A stretch of DNA of 64,000 nt from an uncultured Pseudomonadota bacterium (GCA_902801125.1 CADCGT010000002.1:225157-289156); one strand, 5' to 3'. Counted from the stretch's first letter, positions 25,127 through 44,642 are shown. A program made the numbers and translations. Notes: generated by a model not told the origin, from the letters alone.

Positions 25127-27318
25127 AAATCTGCCCCCCGACATCCACCATCAACACCACTAACATCAATATCTTCACAAGATTCTATTTCTTGGCAAAA
25201 ATCTGTCTTACCACCAGACATCGCCCCCCCAACGCCGCCAATTAATGCACCGCCGGCCGCACCAATTAATGCCCCCCATCCACCAGCCAACACACCGGCC
25301 GATGCACCCGTCGACGCCAAACCCGCTCCATATTTTAATGCAGATTGCAACTTACTTTCGCCGCCGGTTTCGCAAACGCGTTGCATACGACACACATGAC
25401 AATTACACAACGAAGGTTCGAATGTCACACTCTTTATGTATGAATAATTTTTATTTTCGTCGGTTGCCGACGGTTTCTTTTCAACCGCATAGGTAGATAA
25501 ACACCAATCACGCGAAGTCCCTACCGCACTGGCACGTTTTAACTGTGTAAGCTTTGATTCCAATTCAGCCAGATAGCGATTTTCTGCGCCGATTTCTGCG
25601 ATTCCCCTAACTATCCCGAACATGCTGTCCTTCAAACTGCGCCGGCCGGCGGGTTGTTGCGCACTCCGACATGCGGCAATTGTACGTTCGTTATCAAATT
25701 GTTTCAAGAATTCCGTAACCGCAGCTTTACTTTCGGCACGAACCTTAGCCTTTAACTCGCCTTCATCGGCCGGAACTTTAGTCAAACTTGCAACAATATC
25801 ACTTCCGGGCAGACAATTCATATCTGTACCACATACGCGACCCAAAGCCTCGGCAAAGTAATTTTCACAACCATTAACCATCTGGTAATCCATCTGTAAT
25901 AAAACCGAACTTACAATCACATCAAAATACTTTTCGCCACGGCACGAAGTAAACATACCCTGGGGACACATTGCGACAATCTCTGATGTCTTTTTACCCA
26001 AACATTCCGGCGCGGTAAAGTTCGTTCCACATTTATCACGCAGACATTTATCAACATCGTTTTGACAGAAATGCGTGCGCAATTCGGCAAGCAATGCTTG
26101 AAAATCAGCCTTTATTCCCGGAATCTTGGCTTCACATTCGTCAATAATCGGACAAATGCCTGCCGCCATGTTTATATTACTCAAACATCCAGAACTTAAC
26201 CCAGTTGCTTTTTCATCAGAATTTATAGTCACAGAGCACCCCTCTTCCAAACAGGCACGAACTTTTGTCCGACACGTAAGGCGCATATTTTCGTCGGCAT
26301 ATTTTGCTGCCTCGGCCAAAATCATTTTTGATTCCGCGGTCCAATCTTCCAAAACAAAAGATTTTACCGCCATACATTGATCCAAAACATTTTCACACGC
26401 ATTCGCACGACGATTCAACAACGCCGCATCCAAACAATTTTCAAAGTTCACACCACAACCACCCTTGTCAGAAATGCACGCGCGATACGCCAACAAACAT
26501 TCCCCGCGATTGTATTTATTCGTGGTCGACAACATATCCAGTGTTGCCGAACGCACGGCGGCCTGGGCGGTGCGCTTGTTTGATTCTGCATCACGTTTTT
26601 GTTCCGCCAAATATCCATCAAACGCCTTACAGTCTTTGACAATTTCGCGTTGATACAATCTTTCTTCCATTTCTGCGCGTTTTGCATCGCATTGCCCCAG
26701 GATATATTTGCAACTTTCCGCAGCCATATCATACAGGTTGTCGCCAATATCTTCGTCCGCAGCCAGGCTTTCCGCCGAACCACCACCATTTATCCACGCA
26801 ACCAAATCGATACCCGATGTGCGCGATGCGCGTTTTGCAGTTTCACTTTCACCAAATTTTACAAATTTTGCGCGCGCGCCCAACTTTTCACGTTCCACGC
26901 CTTCGGTATAGAGCAATTCTGCATCAGATTGAATTTTTTGAATTTCTTGGATTAAACTTTTCGATTGTTTAATATTGTTTGAACAAGAACAGCGTCCGCC
27001 TTCGGATTCATCCAACATACAGAAATCATCCATACATTCGCGATATGCCGCGCGACATTCGTCGGGGCCGATTACGGCGGCAACTATTTTTTCCGCCTCG
27101 GCCGTGGGTTCGGGTTCCGCCACCGCCGGTGTTTCAACCTTTGGCGCGGCCGCGGGCGCGACGGTCGTTGTCTTTTTCACGCCGGTCGCCTTTTGCACGG
27201 GCGTCATCGTTGACATAGACGCACGAATCCCCACGCGCGAAGCCCCATCACGCGTTGCGGCAAACGCAACCACCGGCAACACCGCCATTATCACAAATGC
27301 AAATGATTTGATTTTCAT
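25123..27318 (-). CDS. Large secreted cysteine-rich protein, family member 2, with a C-terminal glycine zipper
   Basis: Signal peptide MKIKSFAFVIMAVLPVVAFA (an alternative ATG lies at 27327). Contains ECRAAYRECMDDFCMLDESEGGRCSCSN and is collinear with member 1 (for example NKYNRGECLLAYRAC and CENVLDQCMAVK). C-terminal GGWGALIGAAGGALIGGVGGAMSGG. Confidence 0.85.
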   Translation of the reverse strand: MKIKSFAFVIMAVLPVVAFAATRDGASRVGIRASMSTMTPVQKATGVKKTTTVAPAAAPKVETPAVAEPEPTAEAEKIVAAVIGPDECRAAYRECMDDFCMLDESEGGRCSCSNNIKQSKSLIQEIQKIQSDAELLYTEGVEREKLGARAKFVKFGESETAKRASRTSGIDLVAWINGGGSAESLAADEDIGDNLYDMAAESCKYILGQCDAKRAEMEERLYQREIVKDCKAFDGYLAEQKRDAESNKRTAQAAVRSATLDMLSTTNKYNRGECLLAYRACISDKGGCGVNFENCLDAALLNRRANACENVLDQCMAVKSFVLEDWTAESKMILAEAAKYADENMRLTCRTKVRACLEEGCSVTINSDEKATGLSSGCLSNINMAAGICPIIDECEAKIPGIKADFQALLAELRTHFCQNDVDKCLRDKCGTNFTAPECLGKKTSEIVAMCPQGMFTSCRGEKYFDVIVSSVLLQMDYQMVNGCENYFAEALGRVCGTDMNCLPGSDIVASLTKVPADEGELKAKVRAESKAAVTEFLKQFDNERTIAACRSAQQPAGRRSLKDSMFGIVRGIAEIGAENRYLAELESKLTQLKRASAVGTSRDWCLSTYAVEKKPSATDENKNYSYIKSVTFEPSLCNCHVCRMQRVCETGGESKLQSALKYGAGLASTGASAGVLAGGWGALIGAAGGALIGGVGGAMSGGKTDFCQEIESCEDIDVSGVDGGCRGADL

Positions 27319-36877: not shown

Positions 36878-36996
36878 AAACCAAGGTTTTTTTACGCCTG
36901 AATTTTCAAAAAACCGAAAATTGCTAACACTTTGTTTTTACACAATAAAAAATTTTTGATTTTTTGAAAAAAAGTGTTGATTTTAAACCTTGGTTT
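36878..36996. promoter_or_regulatory. Invertible-promoter-like element, copy 3 (orientation A relative to its minus-strand gene)
   Basis: The 12-bp inverted repeats sit at 36878-36889 and 36985-36996. The plus-strand interior is nearly identical to the copy 2 plus strand, yet the associated gene lies on the opposite side. Confidence 0.75.
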
Positions 36997-37015
36997 TTTT
37001 ACGCCTTGGCGCACG

Positions 37016-37044
37016 AAAAAAACCCGCGGAAATCCGCGGGTTTT
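37016..37044 (-). terminator. GC hairpin terminator preceding inverton copy 3 (follows the autotransporter gene)
   Basis: AAAAAAACCCGCGG-AAAT-CCGCGGGTTTT. Confidence 0.75.
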
Positions 37045-37061
37045 ATCAAACAAATTTCGCA

Positions 37062-40000
37062 CTAGAATTCATATCTAATTCTTGCCCGTCCGGTTTGCGA
37101 TGTGAATCCTTCGCGGATTTCGATTTCATAGTTCACCGACAAATCCAATCCACCGGCGCGGATTCCCAAACCGCCACCAAATTCCGCCCCCAGGCGCGAC
37201 AACCGCGTCCCATCAAGCGCGTATGAATCTACACCCGGCAACAATATCGTCGCAACTTGTTCATCGGACATAAAGTCATATTTCACCGCATAGCGCAATT
37301 CTGGTTTCAACATCAATCCGCGATTCAGTTTAAACCCATATGTCCAACGCGTTTCCAAAACCGCGGTCATATAGTCACTGTCTTGCAGTTTGTTTTTGAT
37401 ACCCAAAGAATTCTTGTATTCATCGGCACTGATATGCATATAGCGCACACCAACCGCCGGCGTGATTCCGCCCGCGAAATCATAACCGGTCATAACCTGG
37501 CCACCATATGAACGCACATCATAATTCGCGTCTATATTCGTTCCCAACGCAACGGCACGTTCAGAATAATCGGACATCGTATAATTTGCCATCGCATTCA
37601 CGAACCAATCGGTCGGTTTATATTGGCCATATGCGAATATGGTCGAACTGTCAACTTCGGTATCACGCGCGGTTCCCGTTATATCGGAATGTGCATAAGA
37701 ATAACCGGCACCCAACGTCAACACGCGGTTCATTGTCATATCCACACCACCGGCAACCCCACGGGTATATCCACGGAACGCATCGTTTTGTTTAGATTTG
37801 TTATAAATACCCTGGGCCCAGACACCACCGGCGGTAATATCAACATCACCACCACCACGACCCAAGGTCAACGCCGTCAAACGACCCGCCGCAAGGTTTG
37901 CAACCGTGTTCTGGACATGCATCGCGACACTTTGGACAACGGATTCTGTTTCTGGGTGAATTGCCGCGTGCGCCTGTTCAACCGCCGCCGCCGTATCCGC
38001 ATCGCCAGACGCCAATTTATCCTGAATCGCATTTGCCAAATCGTTCAATTCATCCGACGAAGAATTGACAAGGTTTGCAACCGTCGTCGCGGCCGCGGCA
38101 CTTATGCCATTTTCCGCCGCAATATCTTCGGTTGACTTCATTGTCGCGGTAATCGTGTCAAAACCTTCGTTCCATTCGTAATCAAAAACGCCAGATGATA
38201 CAGCAACATTTGCATTATCAAACACCGCGCCTTGGAAAACATTATATTCGCCCGCCGCACGCAGGTCAAAATTCAAAGTTCCCGTGCCATCAAACGAATC
38301 GGAAATATCAAAGAACGCGAATTCACTAGGATTGTTTAATGTCGCATTCAATGTTCCATCCAATGTCATTGTCGCCTGGGTAATGGATGCGGTTCCCAAA
38401 TTAAGTGTTGCACCACTTGCAACATCCAATGTCCCGTTTCCCGTCACACCGCCATCCATTGTGGTCGTGGATCCATCGACAAATGTAATCCGGCCACGAT
38501 TATAAATATCGTTTGCCGAACCGTTTGCGGTATTACCCTGAAACACATTCGTTCCTGAAAATGTTATATTGCCAGCGTAATTGGCAATGGCACCACCATT
38601 TGATTCCGCACTGTTGTTTGTAAATGCTGCACTTGTTAAATCAACATCGCCCAGGTTGAACATTGCCCCCCCTTCATCCACAGCAATATTAGAATCAAAT
38701 GTCGAGGCACCATCAATTGTCAATGTTTCTTCGTTAAATACCGCGCCACCATATACGGCCGTATTACCACTGAACGACGCGCCCTGTTCAAAAACGATGC
38801 TGTTTTGGTTATTAATTGCACCACCCTGGGTTCCCTTATCCGCACTGCTTAATGCACTATTATTTGTAAAGGTTGCCAATTTTTTGAACACGATTTCGGC
38901 GCCATATGAATTTGCAATTGCGCCACCATATGCGCCGTTACCAGAATTCAAATCGGTTGCAACATTGGAATCAAATGTGACCGCATCATTAAACGTCAAT
39001 GTGCCACTGTTATAAATTGCGCCACCTTCGACATTATAACCGGTTGCGGTATTACCACGGAATAATGTATCACCATTGACAGTCATTATACCTTGATTCC
39101 ACACAGCGCCGCCCAAGGTTGAATTATATCCATCAGAATCGTCTGTATCGGCGAATGCCTTGTTATAATAAAAATTCACATTATTTAACGTAACCAAACC
39201 GTCAACAAGTGAACTTTCATTTGCAATTGCGCCCCCCTGTAATGCCGAATTACCCTTGGTATTATCATTTACATCACCAAATGTAGTATTCGATATGACC
39301 ATTGTCACGGATGGCACATCCAAATAATCGTCATCCCCAGAATTAAATATTGCACCACCTTGGGATTCCCAGGTAATGTTTGTCGTCTTGTTGCCGGTGA
39401 ACACCGCACCATCAATTGTTGCGGTACCATAGTTGTAAATTGCGCCACCACGGGCACTCGCCACATTGGAATCAAACAGCCCACCATTAACGGTCAAATC
39501 ACCAATAGATTCGATTTCCCCATCATAGTTTAAACTAACATAATTATAAATGGCACCGCCATTTTCCGACGCCGTATTATTCTTAAATTCGTTATTGTTT
39601 ACCGTTAACACACTCTCGTTATAGATGGCACCACCATTTGATTCCGCAGCATTATTATTAAAATGCGAATTTTCCACCCACAACTTGGCGTTATTACCAA
39701 CCGAATCTGTCCAACCTTCAACAAAAATCGCCCCACCCAGATTTGCATCATTATTATTAAAGTAAGAATCATTTATATAAGCATAGCCTGCTTTTGCATC
39801 ACTATCATAGACAGAATTAAAAAATGCACCGCCACGCGTTCCTGCACTGTTGTATTCAAATGTGGAACTTAAAATATCCACCTTGGCCCCCTCAGAACTG
39901 TTTGTTCCACGGCCACTGTAATTCGTATCCAACCAATAATTAATTGGTCGGGTCGCCACCGCGCCACCGATTGTTCCGGAACTGTTGTGGCTAAAAATAC

Positions 40001-40481: not shown

Positions 40482-40724
40482 ATAAAACTCCTTCCTTTGA
40501 TGGCTTTATTGTGCCACCATTTATAACCAAATACAACAACAAATTTTAAATATTTTCAATGTTGATTTTATACCCAGCCGCGACACAAAAATCATTCAAC
40601 CCACGGAATAAATGTTTCAGTATATTTTTCCAAGACAAAATAAAAACATCTGTAAAACATACCCCGGGCACCACCCGGGGTATTACCATAAAAAGTCCCC
40701 CCGGCAGGCAAGTTTTGAAACTAT

Positions 40725-40836
40725 TGTTGTGCAGCCTGTGCAATTCGCGAGCTGAATTACAGGAACTATTGTCCTTTGGTCTTGAAATCAAGCAAACAAA
40801 AGATAAGTTGTGTCTACAGAATCTGTATCATAAAAT
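40725..40836 (-). repeat. Terminal partial copy of the cassette-junction module
   Basis: Contains CTGTGCAATTCGCGAGC (40736-40752), which is identical to 42249-42265. Confidence 0.6.
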
Positions 40837-41397
40837 TTAAAATTTTATAAACGGTATAATCTCTGGCAATTCCGGCAAAACAAAATGTCCATATCCTGGA
40901 AAAACATGTACACGCATTGACGGAATGTTTGATATTATTTTATCATGACTTTTACCCATTTCTGATATATCATTATCAGAAACCAACAAATCAATTCCAT
41001 CGATTGTTTGGTTTGCGATATTATGCATATCAAAATCTTTATAAAACCCAAAAGGGTTCGCCCCGCCAGTATCTATCCACGGAGCAACCAACAAAATTTG
41101 CTTTACTTTCAATTCTGGGTGTGATGCCATATATTTTAATATAAATCCAGCCCCAGCCGAATGCCCTATTAAAATTGTATCGGAATTTATTTTTTGAGAA
41201 TTCATTATGTCTTCCCATTCAGAATATTTCATCATGAAAGTGTGTGCATGGGGAAATCGTGGAATCTGCATAACAATATCATGTTCTTGTTCCAGAACAA
41301 ATTGCAACCATTCTTTCCATCCTTTAGTTGGGCTGTAAGTATTTTTATTCCAATCTAAATCTGGTGGTAAAACCCCATGACAAAAAACAGCATTCAT
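40837..41397 (-). CDS. YdeN-like serine hydrolase (alpha/beta fold)
   Basis: MNAVFCHG...TILIGHSAGAGFILKY (GxSxG)...LLVAPW...GYGHF. Start at 41397 after an AAAGGAAAA RBS. Confidence 0.75.
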   Translation of the reverse strand: MNAVFCHGVLPPDLDWNKNTYSPTKGWKEWLQFVLEQEHDIVMQIPRFPHAHTFMMKYSEWEDIMNSQKINSDTILIGHSAGAGFILKYMASHPELKVKQILLVAPWIDTGGANPFGFYKDFDMHNIANQTIDGIDLLVSDNDISEMGKSHDKIISNIPSMRVHVFPGYGHFVLPELPEIIPFIKF

Positions 41398-41525
41398 TGT
41401 ATTTTCCTTTGGTTTACTTGGCACATTATATTGACATTTCAATAAAACGCAATAAAACATCCAAAAGGAGTCATAAAAATATGACAGATAAATATGATAT
41501 TGCAAAGAAAATTTTTATTAAAATG

Positions 41526-42071
41526 TTATCTTTCTTTTACATAAATCAAAGAATCACATTTACCAACACATTTTGCCCATGAAGCCATTGGTAATACTTT
41601 TTCTAATTTATACTTATTACGTTTTGCTAGATTTTCTGAATGTGTATTTCCGTTGTCTATATCCAATGTAATTTTGCCAAAACCAAATTTGAATAATTCT
41701 GTTTCTAATGCTTGCAGTGCCTCACTCATAAATCCGTTGCCATTTGCAGATTTTATCAACCAATATCCTATTTCGCACCCTTTATCTTGAATATTAAAAA
41801 AGCGAATTCGACCAATAATATTATCGTTATGGTAAATATAAAAACACATACCTTGATTGTTTTCAATTTGATTAGCGCGTTTTGTCAAATATGCCACCAC
41901 ATCATCAATGGTTTTTAATTCACCAAAATGCCCCTGCCATTCCATAAAATAATCACGATTTTGTTCAATAATCTTCAAAAGTTTTGCTGCGTTTTCTTTG
42001 GTCGGCAAAATCACACGCAACACCAATCGTGGTGTTTTGATTGTTTGCGGAAAAATTGATAAATCTTTCAT
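41526..42071 (-). CDS. GNAT-family N-acetyltransferase (RimJ/RimL-like)
   Basis: TPRLVLRVILP...IGRIRFFNIQDKGCEIGYWLIKSANGNGFMSEALQAL. Confidence 0.8.
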   Translation of the reverse strand: MKDLSIFPQTIKTPRLVLRVILPTKENAAKLLKIIEQNRDYFMEWQGHFGELKTIDDVVAYLTKRANQIENNQGMCFYIYHNDNIIGRIRFFNIQDKGCEIGYWLIKSANGNGFMSEALQALETELFKFGFGKITLDIDNGNTHSENLAKRNKYKLEKVLPMASWAKCVGKCDSLIYVKER

Positions 42072-42335
42072 AAAATTAATCCTTTTCAGAAATTATAACA
42101 TAAAAAGTTCGAAAGTGGTAATTTTTTGACATTTTCTAAAACCTAACTTTCGAACTCGACCATCACTGACAAAAAAGCTTGGATTTCCTTGAAAAAACCG
42201 TTCGATTTACTTCAAAAATCAAACGCTTGCACATCTTGGTTGCGTACCCTGTGCAATTCGCGAGCCGAGTTGTTAGAGGTAGGACGAGAGATTGATAATA
42301 AGAAAGAAAAGCTATTTATGTCTTGATTGTGTTAG
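42072..42335 (-). repeat. Cassette-junction module, copy C (tRNA-end-like core, 17-mer, inverted-repeat promoter)
   Basis: ATCTTGGTTG (42233-42242), CTGTGCAATTCGCGAGC (42249-42265) and the inverted repeat AGTTCGAAAGT / ACTTTCGAACT (42106-42116 / 42146-42156). A TATAAT reads toward gene 41526-42071. Confidence 0.75.
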
Positions 42336-43445
42336 TTTGTTGGCACCATGTTGATTTGTATATTTTAACAAAGCAACCTTAAGAGCGTCTTGACCATCTT
42401 TACACTCTATATCTGGTTTATAGCCATTCAATTCAAAATTATTAACAAACATTTCACGATATACACACCCGACATTAAATGTCATATTACTATGTGGCAA
42501 CAAGATATACGCATAATTATATCCGTATACTTCACCACCACATGTGTTTGTACCGATAAATTTTATATTTGGATAATTAAGCATCTGTGTACAGACCACT
42601 TCCCCGGCAGACATTACTTTACCATTTATTAACATGTATATTTGACCATTAAATCCTGCTTTTTTAGCATCAAATTCTGGTAAAGCGTTTTTGCTAGCAT
42701 CTTTAAAAATCACAGGATCTTCGTTTGATTCTATGTTAAATTTATTTCCATTAAAATGTTCATATAATTTTTTTACTGCATTTGCATCTGGATTATTACG
42801 TATAAAAACTCTGCGTGCTGCAGGGTAATGATATCCCAGGATATATGATGTTAATTTTATCGTTGGCCTATCACTGCCACCATCGTTATCTCGTAAATCA
42901 ATAATCAGAGTTTTTGCTTTTGGTAACATTGTTTGCCACTGTTGTTCAAATTCTTCTTTTTCTTCCGGAGTCCAATTAAACAATGTTCGAATACCGATTA
43001 TACCAATGTCATTTTTTAATTTGACAATAAACTTTTTATCACCCGCAATGTTGGAACCGACATTTGGGCGCAATTTACGCAACCTTGTTCGTACACCCTT
43101 ATCATGCCCGATCATACGAAGGCTTATATGGTTATCTGGTATGATTTCAATGGCTGGTTTTAATTTTTCCAATAATTCTAACAATGTCATATCGTGTGCA
43201 TTTTTGTGAATTTCTATCAGTATTTGCAAAATGTTGCGTTTCAGTATTTTATCATGAAAAGGCCACCCACTATATACGTTTATAAGCACACGAGCAAACA
43301 CAGATACTTCGTGTCGTACCTGTTGTGCGGTCAGTTTTGTATTTGGTGATTTTGCCTTTGTATCACCAGCCGCCACCAAATCGGTAGTTTTGGAATCTTG
43401 TAATAAAAAGTCTTCCATTTCCTTAATTGACGGTATTTTGACCAT
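42312..43445 (-). CDS. Peptidase S41-family (C-terminal processing peptidase-like) protein
   Basis: LIIDLRDNDGGS...INGKVMSAGEVV matches the S41 catalytic-region pattern. Confidence 0.65.
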   Translation of the reverse strand: MVKIPSIKEMEDFLLQDSKTTDLVAAGDTKAKSPNTKLTAQQVRHEVSVFARVLINVYSGWPFHDKILKRNILQILIEIHKNAHDMTLLELLEKLKPAIEIIPDNHISLRMIGHDKGVRTRLRKLRPNVGSNIAGDKKFIVKLKNDIGIIGIRTLFNWTPEEKEEFEQQWQTMLPKAKTLIIDLRDNDGGSDRPTIKLTSYILGYHYPAARRVFIRNNPDANAVKKLYEHFNGNKFNIESNEDPVIFKDASKNALPEFDAKKAGFNGQIYMLINGKVMSAGEVVCTQMLNYPNIKFIGTNTCGGEVYGYNYAYILLPHSNMTFNVGCVYREMFVNNFELNGYKPDIECKDGQDALKVALLKYTNQHGANKLTQSRHK

Positions 43446-43685
43446 AAATAATCCTTTTTACGAATTATATCATAAAAAGTTCAAAAGTGGCGAAAATTTT
43501 CCGATTTTTTAAATTTAACTTTCGAACTTTTTGTAGGTATTGCGAATCTAACAAAAAACCGCCCTTACGGACGGTTTTGTAAATCTTGGTTGTGCTATCT
43601 GTGCAATTCGCGAACTGATATAATCAAAATCGGGCGAGAGATTGATGAAGTGAAAGATAAACTATTTCTGTTTTGATTGTGTTTT
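43446..43685 (-). repeat. Cassette-junction module, copy B
   Basis: ATCTTGGTTG (43583-43592), CTGTGCAATTCGCGAAC (43599-43615), the hairpin AAAACCGCCCTTACGGACGGTTTT and the inverted repeat AAAGTTCAAAAGT / ACTTTCGAACTTT (43476-43488 / 43518-43530). Confidence 0.75.
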
Positions 43686-44297
43686 TAATAGCCATTCTGG
43701 TGGTTCTGGTAAACTGAAATTTTTTCCATCCCATTGCAATTTTATATATTCTGCATTTGGCATACTACTAAAATTAAACTTAGTAAAACGCCGAACGAAA
43801 ACACTAATTACGCCCGCATGTGTTGCAATTCCGACTGTATTAGCATCCGTATTTTTAGCAATATTCGTTATTGTGTCACAGACACGCTGAACGAACATAT
43901 TATCGCTTTCACCATTTTCCGGCGCATAATCACCATTAAATAAAAGAGCCGCAGGCATATCTATCTTTTCTTTGGTCAAATCAACAAATGTATCTGCGGG
44001 CGCATCGGTAAGGTTCATTATCTTGCCACACAGTACCCCAAGATTCCTTTCGCGTAACCCCGGGTCTGTTATAATTTTCACCTTTCTGTCACCCAAAACA
44101 ATTTTTGCAGTATCCAAAGCTCTGGATAATGTTGAACTATATATACAATCAAATTGTACATTTGATAAATTTTTGGCCAAAGCCTGCGCTTGTGCAATTC
44201 CATTATTGTTTAGTGGTATATCCAAGAAACTTTGAACTCTCTTTTCTACATTGTAATCAGTCTGACCATGTCTAAATATATAGAAATCCTGTTTCAT
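43662..44297 (-). CDS. Histidine phosphatase family protein (phosphoglycerate-mutase-like)
   Basis: FYIFRHGQTDYN (RHG motif)...SSTLSRALDTAKIV...GIATHAGV. ATG at 44297 after an AAGGTGG RBS. Confidence 0.8.
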   Translation of the reverse strand: MKQDFYIFRHGQTDYNVEKRVQSFLDIPLNNNGIAQAQALAKNLSNVQFDCIYSSTLSRALDTAKIVLGDRKVKIITDPGLRERNLGVLCGKIMNLTDAPADTFVDLTKEKIDMPAALLFNGDYAPENGESDNMFVQRVCDTITNIAKNTDANTVGIATHAGVISVFVRRFTKFNFSSMPNAEYIKLQWDGKNFSLPEPPEWLLKTQSKQK

Positions 44298-44428
44298 ATA
44301 AACCACCTTTGATATAAACAGTTCGAAAACGCCAAAAATTTGATATCTTTCAGACTTAAACTTTCGAACTCAGTGAAACACTCGCTCTTCTAACACAAAC
44401 CCGCTTTTATCGGCGGGTTTGTCTATCT
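44298..44428 (-). repeat. Cassette-junction module, copy A (adjacent to the intact tRNA-Gln)
   Basis: The hairpin AAACCCGCTTTTATCGGCGGGTTT sits directly next to the tRNA 3' end. The inverted repeat AGTTCGAAAAC / AACTTTCGAACT is at 44320-44330 / 44359-44370. Confidence 0.7.
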
Positions 44429-44502
44429 TGGTTGGGGCAGCTGGATTCGAACCAACACTAACGGAGTCAGAGTCCGGTGTTCTACCATTAAACTATGCCC
44501 CA
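44429..44502 (-). tRNA. tRNA-Gln (anticodon CTG)
   Basis: The reverse complement is TGGGGCATAGTTTAATGGTAGAACACCGGACTCTGACTCCGTTAGTGTTGGTTCGAATCCAGCTGCCCCAACCA. Cloverleaf with anticodon loop CTCTGAC. Confidence 0.88.
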
Positions 44503-44642
44503 GGCGACACGGATTATATACCGCACTTTGTCAATTTGCAAATAAAAAATAAAGCACCCCACCCACCGGCGCATTCGTTCCTATGGTTTTGCACCATACA
44601 AAAAAATATAATTTTTATAACCATAAACCAAAAGGATTCAAA

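Follow-up and report, generated by a model that had tools for sequence, protein, structure and literature searches.

How did four small, unrelated minus-strand genes come to stand behind tRNA-Gln, separated by spacers that resemble one another? The window (the whole 64,000-nucleotide stretch of DNA analysed) had been read, from the sequence alone, as carrying four single-gene cassettes between an autotransporter gene and tRNA-Gln. Pfam confirms the four genes (serine hydrolase, GNAT, S41 peptidase and histidine phosphatase), and the predicted A+T-rich character of the array is borne out by a calculated G+C profile of 0.30–0.39 across 40.5–44.5 kb versus 0.43–0.51 in the flanks. The spacers are homologous, as expected for copies of one module. 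The units number three, not four, since the GNAT and serine hydrolase genes have no module between them; the serine hydrolase has its own promoter in 41401–41525 and no module upstream. On the gene-sense (minus) strand, the order is tRNA-Gln(CTG), histidine phosphatase cassette, S41 cassette, GNAT plus serine hydrolase cassette and a decayed end, with a G+C content of 30–36%. A promoter-like TTGCAA-17-TATAAT is located at 44541–44513, ahead of the tRNA.

Every cassette carries a backbone of ~230 nt that is conserved at each junction. The upstream (P) arm consists of an antisense micro-ORF of 25–40 codons followed by the invariant TCGCGAATTGCACAG-N3-GCACAACCA. The downstream (P') arm contains a terminator hairpin at about +10, followed by a pair of inverted GTTCGAAAGT boxes with a spacing of 28 nt; of these, the second overlaps the cargo promoter, within its −35/−10 spacer. 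The units are joined exactly at CAACCA, the six bases that end tRNA-Gln. From the anchor to the distal end, the features are as follows.

44429–44502, minus strand: tRNA-Gln(CTG), the array anchor (ARAGORN; Rfam tRNA, 67.8 bits)
44429–44434, minus strand: first junction core, the tRNA 3' end CAACCA (TGGTTG on the plus strand)
44298–44428, minus strand: P' arm of cassette 1, homologous to the internal arms, with a hairpin and U-run within 44385–44428 (−16.9 kcal/mol, z −6.5)
43662–44297, minus strand: cargo 1, histidine phosphatase (His_Phos_1; Pfam E 7.5e-41)
43590–43676, plus strand: P arm of cassette 1, antisense micro-ORF with a TTG start and 28 codons, LCYLCNSRTDIIKIGREIDEVKDKLFLF; includes CTGTGCAATTCGCGA at 43599–43613
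43587–43592, minus strand: junction core CAACCA of cassettes 1 and 2; homology to L007 breaks just upstream and the L049 and L060 alignments end here
43446–43586, minus strand: P' arm of cassette 2, hairpin within 43540–43582 (−14.7 kcal/mol, z −3.5)
42312–43445, minus strand: cargo 2, S41 peptidase (Pfam E 8.4e-17)
42240–42326, plus strand: P arm of cassette 2, micro-ORF LRTLCNSRAELLEVGREIDNKKEKLFMS, in convergent overlap with the S41 stop codon
42237–42242: junction core CAACCA of cassettes 2 and 3
42072–42236, minus strand: P' arm of cassette 3, with an atypical A+T-rich hairpin at 42199–42225
41526–42071, minus strand: cargo 3a, GNAT acetyltransferase (Pfam E 2.6e-18)
40837–41400, minus strand: cargo 3b, serine hydrolase (Pfam)
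40727–40840, plus strand: P arm of cassette 3, micro-ORF of 37 codons, LCSLCNSRAELQELLSFGLEIKQTKDKLCLQNLYHKI; its core (40724–40729) has decayed to CAACAA
40660–40723, minus strand: distal end of the array, a truncated P' arm (TAGTTTCAAAACTTGCC...) identified by comparison with TAGTTTCAAAACTTGCCC-type arms of other loci, then DNA upstream of the autotransporter gene

This anatomy is shown. A profile search of the window finds three copies of the module only, and the 15-mer CTGTGCAATTCGCGA occurs exactly at 40736, 42249 and 43599 and at no other site in the 64 kb. The partial fourth copy proposed near 40725–40836 is upheld in part: it is a P arm (40724–40840) with the decayed core, followed by ~45 nt of truncated downstream arm, which we infer from comparison with other loci to be the remnant of a lost cassette. 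A hairpin had been described beside two of three tRNA-like copies; a hairpin with a U-run is in fact present beside the tRNA and both internal copies, the third being weak and A+U-rich (−10.8 kcal/mol, z −2.0). Box1 and box2 are located at 44359–44370 and about 44320–44330 in cassette 1 (followed by a ribosome-binding site), at 43517–43528 and 43478–43489 in cassette 2 (promoter TCGCCA-18-TATAAT, 43493–43464) and at 42145–42156 and 42106–42117 in cassette 3 (promoter TTACCA-18-TATAAT, 42121–42092). Among 89 unique arms, box1 lies at +57 in 68 and the box-to-box spacing is 28 nt in 63, with no compensatory covariation between the two boxes. The P' arm of cassette 3 is 92–95% identical to those of L077 and L092 from box1 onward, with a different hairpin segment, and its P-arm variant accompanies the serine hydrolase in L014 and L056 too. 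The micro-ORF displays period-3 conservation and in-frame indels (77 copies), and an invariant block of 15–25 nt is kept even at its synonymous positions. What the boxes and the micro-ORF do is inferred.

The original prediction rested on a 10-mer from the tRNA end, ATCTTGGTTG, which does recur at the internal junctions: its exact matches in the window are at 42233, 43583 and 44425 only. As a common junction sequence it holds in part, since CAACCA alone is common to all junctions in all genomes; the AGAT is a feature of one downstream-arm subtype. Two further corrections apply. The module does not start with the copy of the tRNA 3' end, as the tRNA-like core lies mid-module, between the P and P' arms, and past CAACCA the P arm shows no significant resemblance to the T-arm of the tRNA (z 0.2–2.7). 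A chance match, which had been allowed for, is ruled out by the recurrence of the CAACCA junction in about 80 loci behind tRNA-Gln and by the enrichment of boundaries at CAACCA. Of 51 right-hand boundaries between shared and unshared segments, 35 (69%, with 3.8% expected) lie between −20 and +15 nt from the core, and left-hand boundaries fall at the core in 13 of 54 (background 3.8%). Another 18 of the 54 left-hand breakpoints cluster at +26 to +58, which indicates that the hairpin segment can be exchanged separately.

The precision of the junctions and the restriction to tRNA-Gln are likewise shown. An intact tRNA-Gln heads the arrays, which start directly at it, in the same orientation, in 33 of 53 genome pieces. 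Arrays are found behind tRNA-Gln(CTG) or (TTG) and also where the X element ends in tRNA-like sequence. The identity between cassette and tRNA is short (6–10 nt), whereas X elements carry repeats of 14–22 nt that co-vary with the resident tRNA.

Comparison of strains and species shows that the cassettes move. A strain that is 99.4% identical over 2.2 kb contains an extra 270-residue cassette (L007, L008), with homology breaking inside the module core, and a syntenic relative (autotransporter–array–tRNA–CBAH–DUF1015; L104–L107) has entirely different array genes. MAGs with DUF1015 and CBAH genes only 64–87% identical share cassettes at 92–99% identity; the cassettes of the window are 92–96% identical to copies in species with core genes at 64–87%. 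The tRNA with the histidine phosphatase cassette is 92% identical to L049 (DUF1015, 83%; CBAH, 72%), and the serine hydrolase segment 41527–40726 recurs at 94–96% identity in L014 and L056, with other upstream partners there. A 180-residue cassette (98–99% identical) is joined at one nucleotide to three left contexts: the tRNA-like repeat at the TTG locus (L017), tRNA-Gln(CTG) (L067) and the P arm of another cassette (L099). The sequence common to these contexts is no more than C(A/C)CAACCA (at most 9 nt), not long enough for RecA-dependent exchange. Strain polymorphism and the transfer of whole cassettes between species are thus established and, together with joining at the same nucleotide to different contexts, argue for site-specific insertion rather than homologous exchange. 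The serial site-specific integration originally predicted, at an att site overlapping the tRNA 3' end, is supported; neither the enzyme nor the act of integration has been shown.

The module pattern was detected in 55 stretches, which come without exception from gut or rumen Alphaproteobacteria/Enterousia (50 species-representative MAGs), and in 27 metagenome contigs, all from gut or rumen Alphaproteobacteria; viral contigs, phages and plasmids gave no matches. Cassettes are 0.6–4 kb long with 1–3 cargo genes in either orientation, and 91 cargo ORFs represent 57 families. No mention of a cassette array was found in the Enterousia literature searched.

On balance, we lean towards the interpretation that the cassettes are small non-autonomous integrative elements that insert by site-specific recombination at CAACCA. 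As part of this explanation, and with equally limited assurance, the arrays would constitute a gene-cassette platform specific to the lineage of Candidatus Enterousia and its relatives, gut Alphaproteobacteria with reduced genomes (order Rs-D84). The unit would comprise the P' arm, cargo and P arm, with no enzyme of its own. Conservative site-specific recombination would insert it immediately 3' of CAACCA at the end of tRNA-Gln (CTG or TTG), of the downstream tRNA-like repeat or of a resident cassette. Each insertion would recreate CAACCA at the distal end, so that arrays could grow and cassettes could be lost or exchanged. The recombinase would act in trans from outside the array; we infer that it may be a tyrosine integrase that binds the conserved P-arm block and the GTTCGAAAGT boxes. 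The recombination chemistry, a circular intermediate and the identity of the enzyme are all inferred, and the left-hand breakpoint cluster at +26 to +58 is not predicted by a single crossover point and counts against this model. So do the missing recombinase, the rarity and unrelated arm of the only tRNA-Gln-specific integrase found, the lack of a circular cassette contig and the shortness (6–10 nt) of the match to the tRNA. A bolder reading, which we regard as no more than possible, is an integron-analogous gene-capture system of independent origin with dedicated machinery for CAACCA, the TCGCGAATTGCACAG block and the paired GTTCGAAAGT boxes. This machinery may be a host-encoded enzyme, possibly aided by the cassette-borne micro-protein, and accessory genes may flow chiefly through this system across an entire order of gut Alphaproteobacteria with reduced genomes.

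The reported absence of an integrase, excisionase or transposase was confirmed: none was found by Pfam, motif scan or tblastn in the ~110 arrays, the window or ~10 kb beyond where readable. No circular cassette was found among the contigs (no read data were available). A rare DUF6538-type tyrosine-integrase-like gene is located directly 3' of tRNA-Gln(CTG) and (TTG) in relatives (L108–L112). The divergent island that bears it thereby carries the only tRNA-Gln-specific integrase found (six database relatives; whole genomes were not covered), and has an arm whose sequence shows no relation to those of the cassettes. Its presence at the same site of both isoacceptors indicates that the site is a real att site. 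Additionally, a GIY-YIG gene (a free-standing protein of 81 residues; Pfam E 8.5e-17) and its structured leader (~105 nt) form an insertion precisely behind CAACCA. It is seen at the CTG locus and at the TTG locus across three MAGs (L019, L050 and L074), with 92–94% identity between them.

The strongest rival, although unlikely, is shuffling by homologous recombination, in which the backbone is conserved as an expression module (terminator, promoter/operator and micro-ORF), cassettes pass from strain to strain through RecA-dependent double crossovers within it after DNA uptake, and the link to the tRNA is a relic of one ancient integration. It is favoured by the lack of a recombinase near any array, by breakpoints in the pair of blocks with the highest conservation (at the end of the P arm and just before box1) and by mosaic backbones with independently swapped hairpin segments. 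Against it stand the single-nucleotide joining of the 180-residue cassette to a tRNA, a tRNA-like repeat and another cassette, the arrays at two tRNA-Gln loci and the X element, the use of the same CAACCA point by unrelated insertions (the GIY-YIG unit and the integrase island) and the conservation of the invariant block at synonymous micro-ORF positions. Very unlikely is break-driven capture, in which a site-specific nuclease (e.g. GIY-YIG) breaks tRNA-Gln at its 3' end and, during repair, cassettes are copied from other alleles or DNA is captured. The position of the GIY-YIG gene at both loci fits, as does the precedent of T4 SegB, a GIY-YIG homing endonuclease within, and acting on, a tRNA gene cluster (PMC2330249). 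However, the gene occurs in just three of ~110 loci and not in the window, its product is a catalytic domain only, and homing leaves the CAACCA of each cassette, the 230-nt backbone and the precision at both ends unexplained. A fixed ancestral operon-like block, with spacers alike through a shared regulatory region, is all but excluded: six assemblies of the same species do have the identical four-gene order, but the extra cassette in L007 and L008, the unrelated content at the syntenic site and the transfer of single cassettes between species contradict it.

If site-specific insertion is correct, this would be a second, structurally different, tRNA-anchored cassette system beside integrons, the best-known dedicated cassette-array platform, and modular gene capture would have evolved more than once. 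Its spread across at least 50 species of uncultured gut and rumen bacteria with ~1 Mb genomes raises the question of the flexible gene pool in streamlined host-associated bacteria with few mobile elements. The putative recombination sites (CAACCA, the 15-nt invariant block and two boxes) are defined well enough to serve as bait for the enzyme. The arrays could also mark strain variation in rumen metagenomes, and their conserved micro-ORFs make up a family whose function is unknown.

Several known systems resemble the array in part. For IS200/IS605-type (PATE-like) elements, the position of insertion (3' of CAACCA) and the hairpin located 10 nt in from the left end fit; no conserved right-end hairpin, no guide conserved among arm subtypes and no tnpA/tnpB in any locus were found. 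The GIY-YIG gene that three related MAGs carry at the tRNA-Gln junction brings SegB-type endonucleases to mind, but it is absent from the window and most arrays and does not explain the backbone; a homing-endonuclease gene was rejected accordingly. The pdif modules of Acinetobacter plasmids are Xer-dependent, with small cargo between short recombination sites and a recombinase encoded elsewhere, as is proposed here. The array, in contrast, is chromosomal and tRNA-anchored, and Xer-dependent modules (pdif/IMEX) were rejected because no 11-6-11 dif-like dyad (28-bp XerC-spacer-XerD site) surrounds the core and all junctions are direct.

Integrons, including sedentary chromosomal integrons and CALINs, resemble the array in their tandem small, mostly single-gene cassettes, in a cargo that is diverse and in many cases unknown (with GNATs and methyltransferases), in having at each junction a conserved repeat like a recombination site, and in cassettes that strains gain or lose and that different species have in common; CALINs (attC clusters without an integrase) also lack an adjoining integrase. 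An integron proper was rejected: the array has no intI, attI or Pc, with no recombinase in the window locus or flanks, and its boundary is CAACCA| at a tRNA 3' end rather than G|TTRRRY. GCACAAC fits RYYYAAC at six of seven positions and some arms have GTTAGAW at ~+40, but the boundaries map to CAACCA|. Furthermore, attC is a hairpin of 57–141 nt, whereas the repeat here is a 230-nt two-armed backbone with a micro-ORF and promoter, and integron cassettes are mostly promoterless and in one orientation, whereas these have their own promoters and cargo in either orientation.

Tycheposon islands of Prochlorococcus integrate serially at tRNA genes (bioRxiv 10.1101/2020.12.28.424599), and integrase-less CIMEs accrete in streptococci. 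Such accretion shares with the array a tRNA 3'-end target in a streamlined genome, elements stacked behind the tRNA, partial tRNA repeats at old junctions and some units that lack an integrase and need one in trans. The array differs in that its units are at least tenfold smaller, none of ~110 arrays has an integrase, the tRNA repeat is only 6–10 nt (14–22 nt in the X element) and one conserved backbone is common to all units, as in integron cassettes. Two features of tRNA-targeting tandem elements, an intact tRNA after insertion and a direct repeat of the tRNA 3' end (albeit short) at every junction, are present, as is the integron trait of unrelated cassettes in a variable array that differs from strain to strain.

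The array lies on the minus strand behind tRNA-Gln(CTG) and comprises the following features (window coordinates).

44429–44502, minus strand, tRNA-Gln(CTG)
44297–43662, minus strand, His phosphatase gene, downstream of tRNA-Gln
43445–42312, minus strand, S41 peptidase gene
42071–41526, minus strand, GNAT gene
41400–40837, minus strand, serine hydrolase gene

Comparison within the window sequence shows the inter-gene spacers to be mutually homologous. By exact search, CTGTGCAATTCGCGA and ATCTTGGTTG are each present in three copies here and nowhere else in the 64 kb, and the array copies are the sole matches to the module profile in the window. A hairpin followed by a U-run is found 3′ of tRNA-Gln and 3′ of both internal cores. 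The array had appeared A+T-rich by eye, and the window profile bears this out, with a G+C fraction of 0.30–0.39 in the array and 0.43–0.51 in both flanks. The cassette array is a real feature, and the repeated module noticed behind tRNA-Gln in the original prediction is confirmed with some corrections.

Elsewhere in the window, sub-threshold Rfam matches to Leu_leader (31–34 bits on both strands; gathering score 50 bits) occur at 36898–37093, between the autotransporter gene and a 170-aa ORF; this is likely to be a palindromic terminator region rather than a leader. Window positions 1–23000 are not collinear (offset ∼17 kb) with the 1.0 Mb scaffold_1 of ENA ERZ1104449 (L102), which carries the identical array and has an HpaII-type restriction–modification pair nearby. 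For the 900-aa window protein encoded at 22442–25144, no exact match is recorded.

In gene-sense orientation, each junction consists of a P arm, the core CAACCA and a P′ arm. The P arm (∼90 nt) ends with TCGCGAATTGCACAG, which is invariant, followed by three variable bases and then GCACAACCA, and its antisense strand encodes a micro-ORF of 25–40 codons with the consensus (TTG) C-x-L-C-N-S-R-(A/T)-(E/D)-L-x-E-I-G-(R/Q)-E-I-...-K-x-K-L.... Information content at codon positions 1, 2 and 3 is 1.00, 1.46 and 0.63 bits (permutation p < 5e-5) and indels are in frame; the micro-ORF is under coding-type constraint. It has no Shine–Dalgarno sequence and no match in Pfam. The idea that it is part of a bigger protein, either an HNH-like one (LCxxCNSRK) or the N-terminus of an integrase, was rejected, as a profile search returned only four tiny hypothetical ORFs and Pfam none. 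Derivation of the P arm from the tRNA was likewise rejected, since, outside CAACCA, shuffled sequence aligns to the 3′ half of the tRNA at least as well. The triplet between TTGCACAG and GCACAACCA (window 43593–43598 and equivalents) is hypervariable, reading ATA or GCA in strains that are 99.4% identical and ACA or ATA in 98–99% identical copies of one cassette.

The P′ arm contains, in order, a hairpin at about +10, a TTCTAATA-like stretch, the box GAGTTCGAAAGT and an inverted copy of this box. Among the 89 unique P′ arms, GAGTTCGAAAGT lies at +57 in 68 and the inverted copy follows 28 nt beyond the first in 63, giving the form GTTCGAAAGT-N28-ACTTTCGAAC; the second box occupies the spacer of the cargo promoter, with a TTGACA-like −35 on one side and TATAAT on the other. 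No compensatory covariation between the boxes was detected in the 89 arms, which speaks against an attC-like or RNA hairpin. Because the two do not co-vary, they look like protein-binding sites, which we consider more probable than a stem, although this is inferred from sequence alone.

The P-arm pattern (20 specified bases; about one chance match expected in 596 Gb by our own arithmetic) was matched by 55 stretches in 50 species-representative MAGs, all titled Alphaproteobacteria, Candidatus Enterousia or uncultured proteobacterium and derived from rumen, horse, yak, goat, deer and similar sources. Enterousia belongs to the order Rs-D84 and has genomes of ∼0.75–1.0 Mb (PMC12306168). The pattern was also found in 29 metagenome contigs, two of which (L091 and L096) were rejected: the match there is fortuitous and intragenic, on an unrelated contig whose G+C content is 52%. 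Viral contigs, phages and plasmids gave no match to the module pattern. Of 53 genome pieces, 33 have an array that abuts tRNA-Gln(CTG) or tRNA-Gln(TTG) and shares the orientation of the tRNA; arrays contain from one to at least five modules.

The cargo comprises 91 ORFs in 57 families, including a phosphatase, GNAT, peptidases, SAM methyltransferases, radical SAM/B12 proteins, a symporter, RNase T-like and MYG1-like exonucleases, a P-loop kinase, ABC-transporter-like and MetRS-like proteins (the last two judged by eye) and many unknowns. Cargo occurs in either orientation; reversed cargo brings its own promoter along and leaves the backbone unchanged. No recombinase was found among the cargo, nor is one hidden among the large genes, which encode a radical SAM protein, the symporter, an M16 peptidase and, by eye, the ABC-transporter-like and MetRS-like proteins. 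A 513-aa cargo protein resembling methionyl-tRNA synthetase by eye (L055, 4109–5650 in module-oriented coordinates) may be a spare or resistant aminoacyl-tRNA synthetase carried as a cassette, its identity being judged without a Pfam scan; the L108 island described below likewise contains a class-I synthetase.

Comparison of the locus in related genomes revealed a cassette difference between strains, unrelated content at the syntenic site and units shared between species. Two contigs from different samples (L007 and L008) match the window at 99.4% identity across 2.2 kb and carry an additional 270-aa cassette behind the His phosphatase, with homology ending directly after ...TTGCACAG. In L104 and L105 the order autotransporter–array–tRNA–CBAH–DUF1015 is kept at 73–89% nucleotide identity with unrelated array genes, and L106 and L107 have a seven-gene array at the syntenic site. 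The serine hydrolase unit is 94–96% identical to units in L014 and L056, the His phosphatase unit 92% identical to one in L049 and the GNAT unit 92–95% identical to those in L077 and L092; DUF1015 and CBAH in the MAGs sharing single units with the window are only 64–87% identical. An all-against-all comparison yielded 57 shared segments at ≥88% identity, nearly all corresponding to one cassette. Right boundaries fall within −20 to +15 nt of a CAACCA in 35 of 51 cases (background 3.8%); of 54 left boundaries, 13 are at the core, and a further 18 fall between +16 and +65. A 180-aa cassette, with copies 98–99% identical, is joined at one nucleotide to three left contexts, namely a tRNA-like repeat at the TTG locus (L017), tRNA-Gln(CTG) (L067) and the P arm of another cassette (L099), which have only C(A/C)CAACCA in common. 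Nine shared bases are too few for RecA-dependent exchange, which favors site-specific insertion. The analysis shows the anatomy of the array, its restriction to the target, the precision of the junctions and the movement of cassettes by horizontal transfer.

As a separate observation, DUF1015 and CBAH lie inverted beyond the distal array end in some species (L030, L039, L040, L059 and L079). This layout resembles the result of an inversion of the tRNA–array segment and suggests that arrays participate in genome rearrangements.

The same point behind tRNA-Gln has other occupants, listed here with their coordinates (module-oriented for the X element and GIY-YIG unit).

L022 5514–5687, X element; others in L020, L025, L030, L032, L038, L043, L076, L095, L100 and further pieces
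L050 1134–1486, L019 265–617 and L074 7930–8284, GIY-YIG unit
L108 6986–8581 (minus strand), L112 5007–6614 and L110 2029–3519, tyrosine-integrase-like gene

The X element, a 185–330-nt unit behind tRNA-Gln in many species and absent from the window, ends by repeating 14–22 nt of the 3′ end of its resident tRNA, and this repeat co-varies among CTG, TTG and variant tRNAs. It contains GGTTCGA(A/C)A..AGTA motifs, several hairpins and a terminator stem that includes the AACCA of the tRNA. It is sometimes tandem, and arrays begin at either the tRNA or the X end. Identification as tmRNA or another known RNA was rejected (no ARAGORN or Rfam match); it could represent an unknown RNA gene, or else an att-bearing unit that is empty. 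The GIY-YIG unit is an 81-aa stand-alone nuclease gene whose leader of ∼105 nt is rich in G+C and in hairpins. Three MAGs carry this unit precisely behind CAACCA, and it occurs at both tRNA-Gln loci (92–94% identical between MAGs, right boundary variable). In the integrase islands (L108–L112), a divergent 496–535-aa tyrosine-integrase-like gene lies directly 3′ of tRNA-Gln(CTG) or (TTG). Its assignment rests on a weak Phage_integrase match, a remote relationship to a DUF6538+Phage_integrase protein, and the motifs TGSR, HSFK and NNYTRY; it has a DUF6538-type N-terminus, HxxK in place of HxxR and only six database relatives. It heads an island that also encodes an N6/N4 DNA methylase fused to an HTH domain, a serine recombinase of 199 aa (Resolvase+HTH_7) and a further, small Phage_integrase protein. 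The island arm is unrelated to the cassette arms, and the integrase is rare and absent from the window and the array loci. Occupation of one point by these elements indicates that the tRNA-Gln 3′ end is a genuine attachment site in this clade.

The original reading, serial site-specific integration at the tRNA 3′ end, is supported, while the enzyme, circular form and chemistry are inferred. In the model that we favor with moderate confidence, cassettes would be non-autonomous, their joined ends would create an attP-like site (P arm–CAACCA–P′ arm) and a recombinase supplied in trans would integrate them at the CAACCA of tRNA-Gln, an X element or a resident cassette. Against this model, no enzyme was found for the cassettes, and the second cluster of left-side breakpoints shows that the hairpin segment is separately exchangeable. 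No circular cassettes were found among short contigs. One 1250-nt contig (L080) has a 74-nt exact terminal overlap in repeated X-element sequence on either side of one cassette, and could consist of X copies in tandem or be a circle of X plus cassette, which cannot be distinguished. The tRNA neighbor DUF1015 was rejected as the recombinase, being a core gene (≥90% identical across the clade) that the TTG locus lacks; it has no relative with a solved structure. Homologous shuffling through the conserved backbone is unlikely, given the shortness of the sequence shared by the three contexts of the 180-aa cassette, and capture triggered by a nuclease is less likely still. A fixed block of genes is refuted by the extra cassette in a near-identical strain and the unrelated content at the syntenic site.

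Arrays of this type were not described in the literature searched. The array works like an integron, yet tests for integron membership failed: it has no intI, attI or attC-type boundary, and its cassettes have their own promoters with cargo in both orientations. Serial integration at tRNA genes is a logic shared with tycheposon islands (bioRxiv 10.1101/2020.12.28.424599). CIME accretion also proceeds by serial integration at tRNA genes and fits the array in this respect. Unlike either, every unit of the array is tiny and lacks an integrase, and all units are built on one conserved backbone with a micro-ORF.
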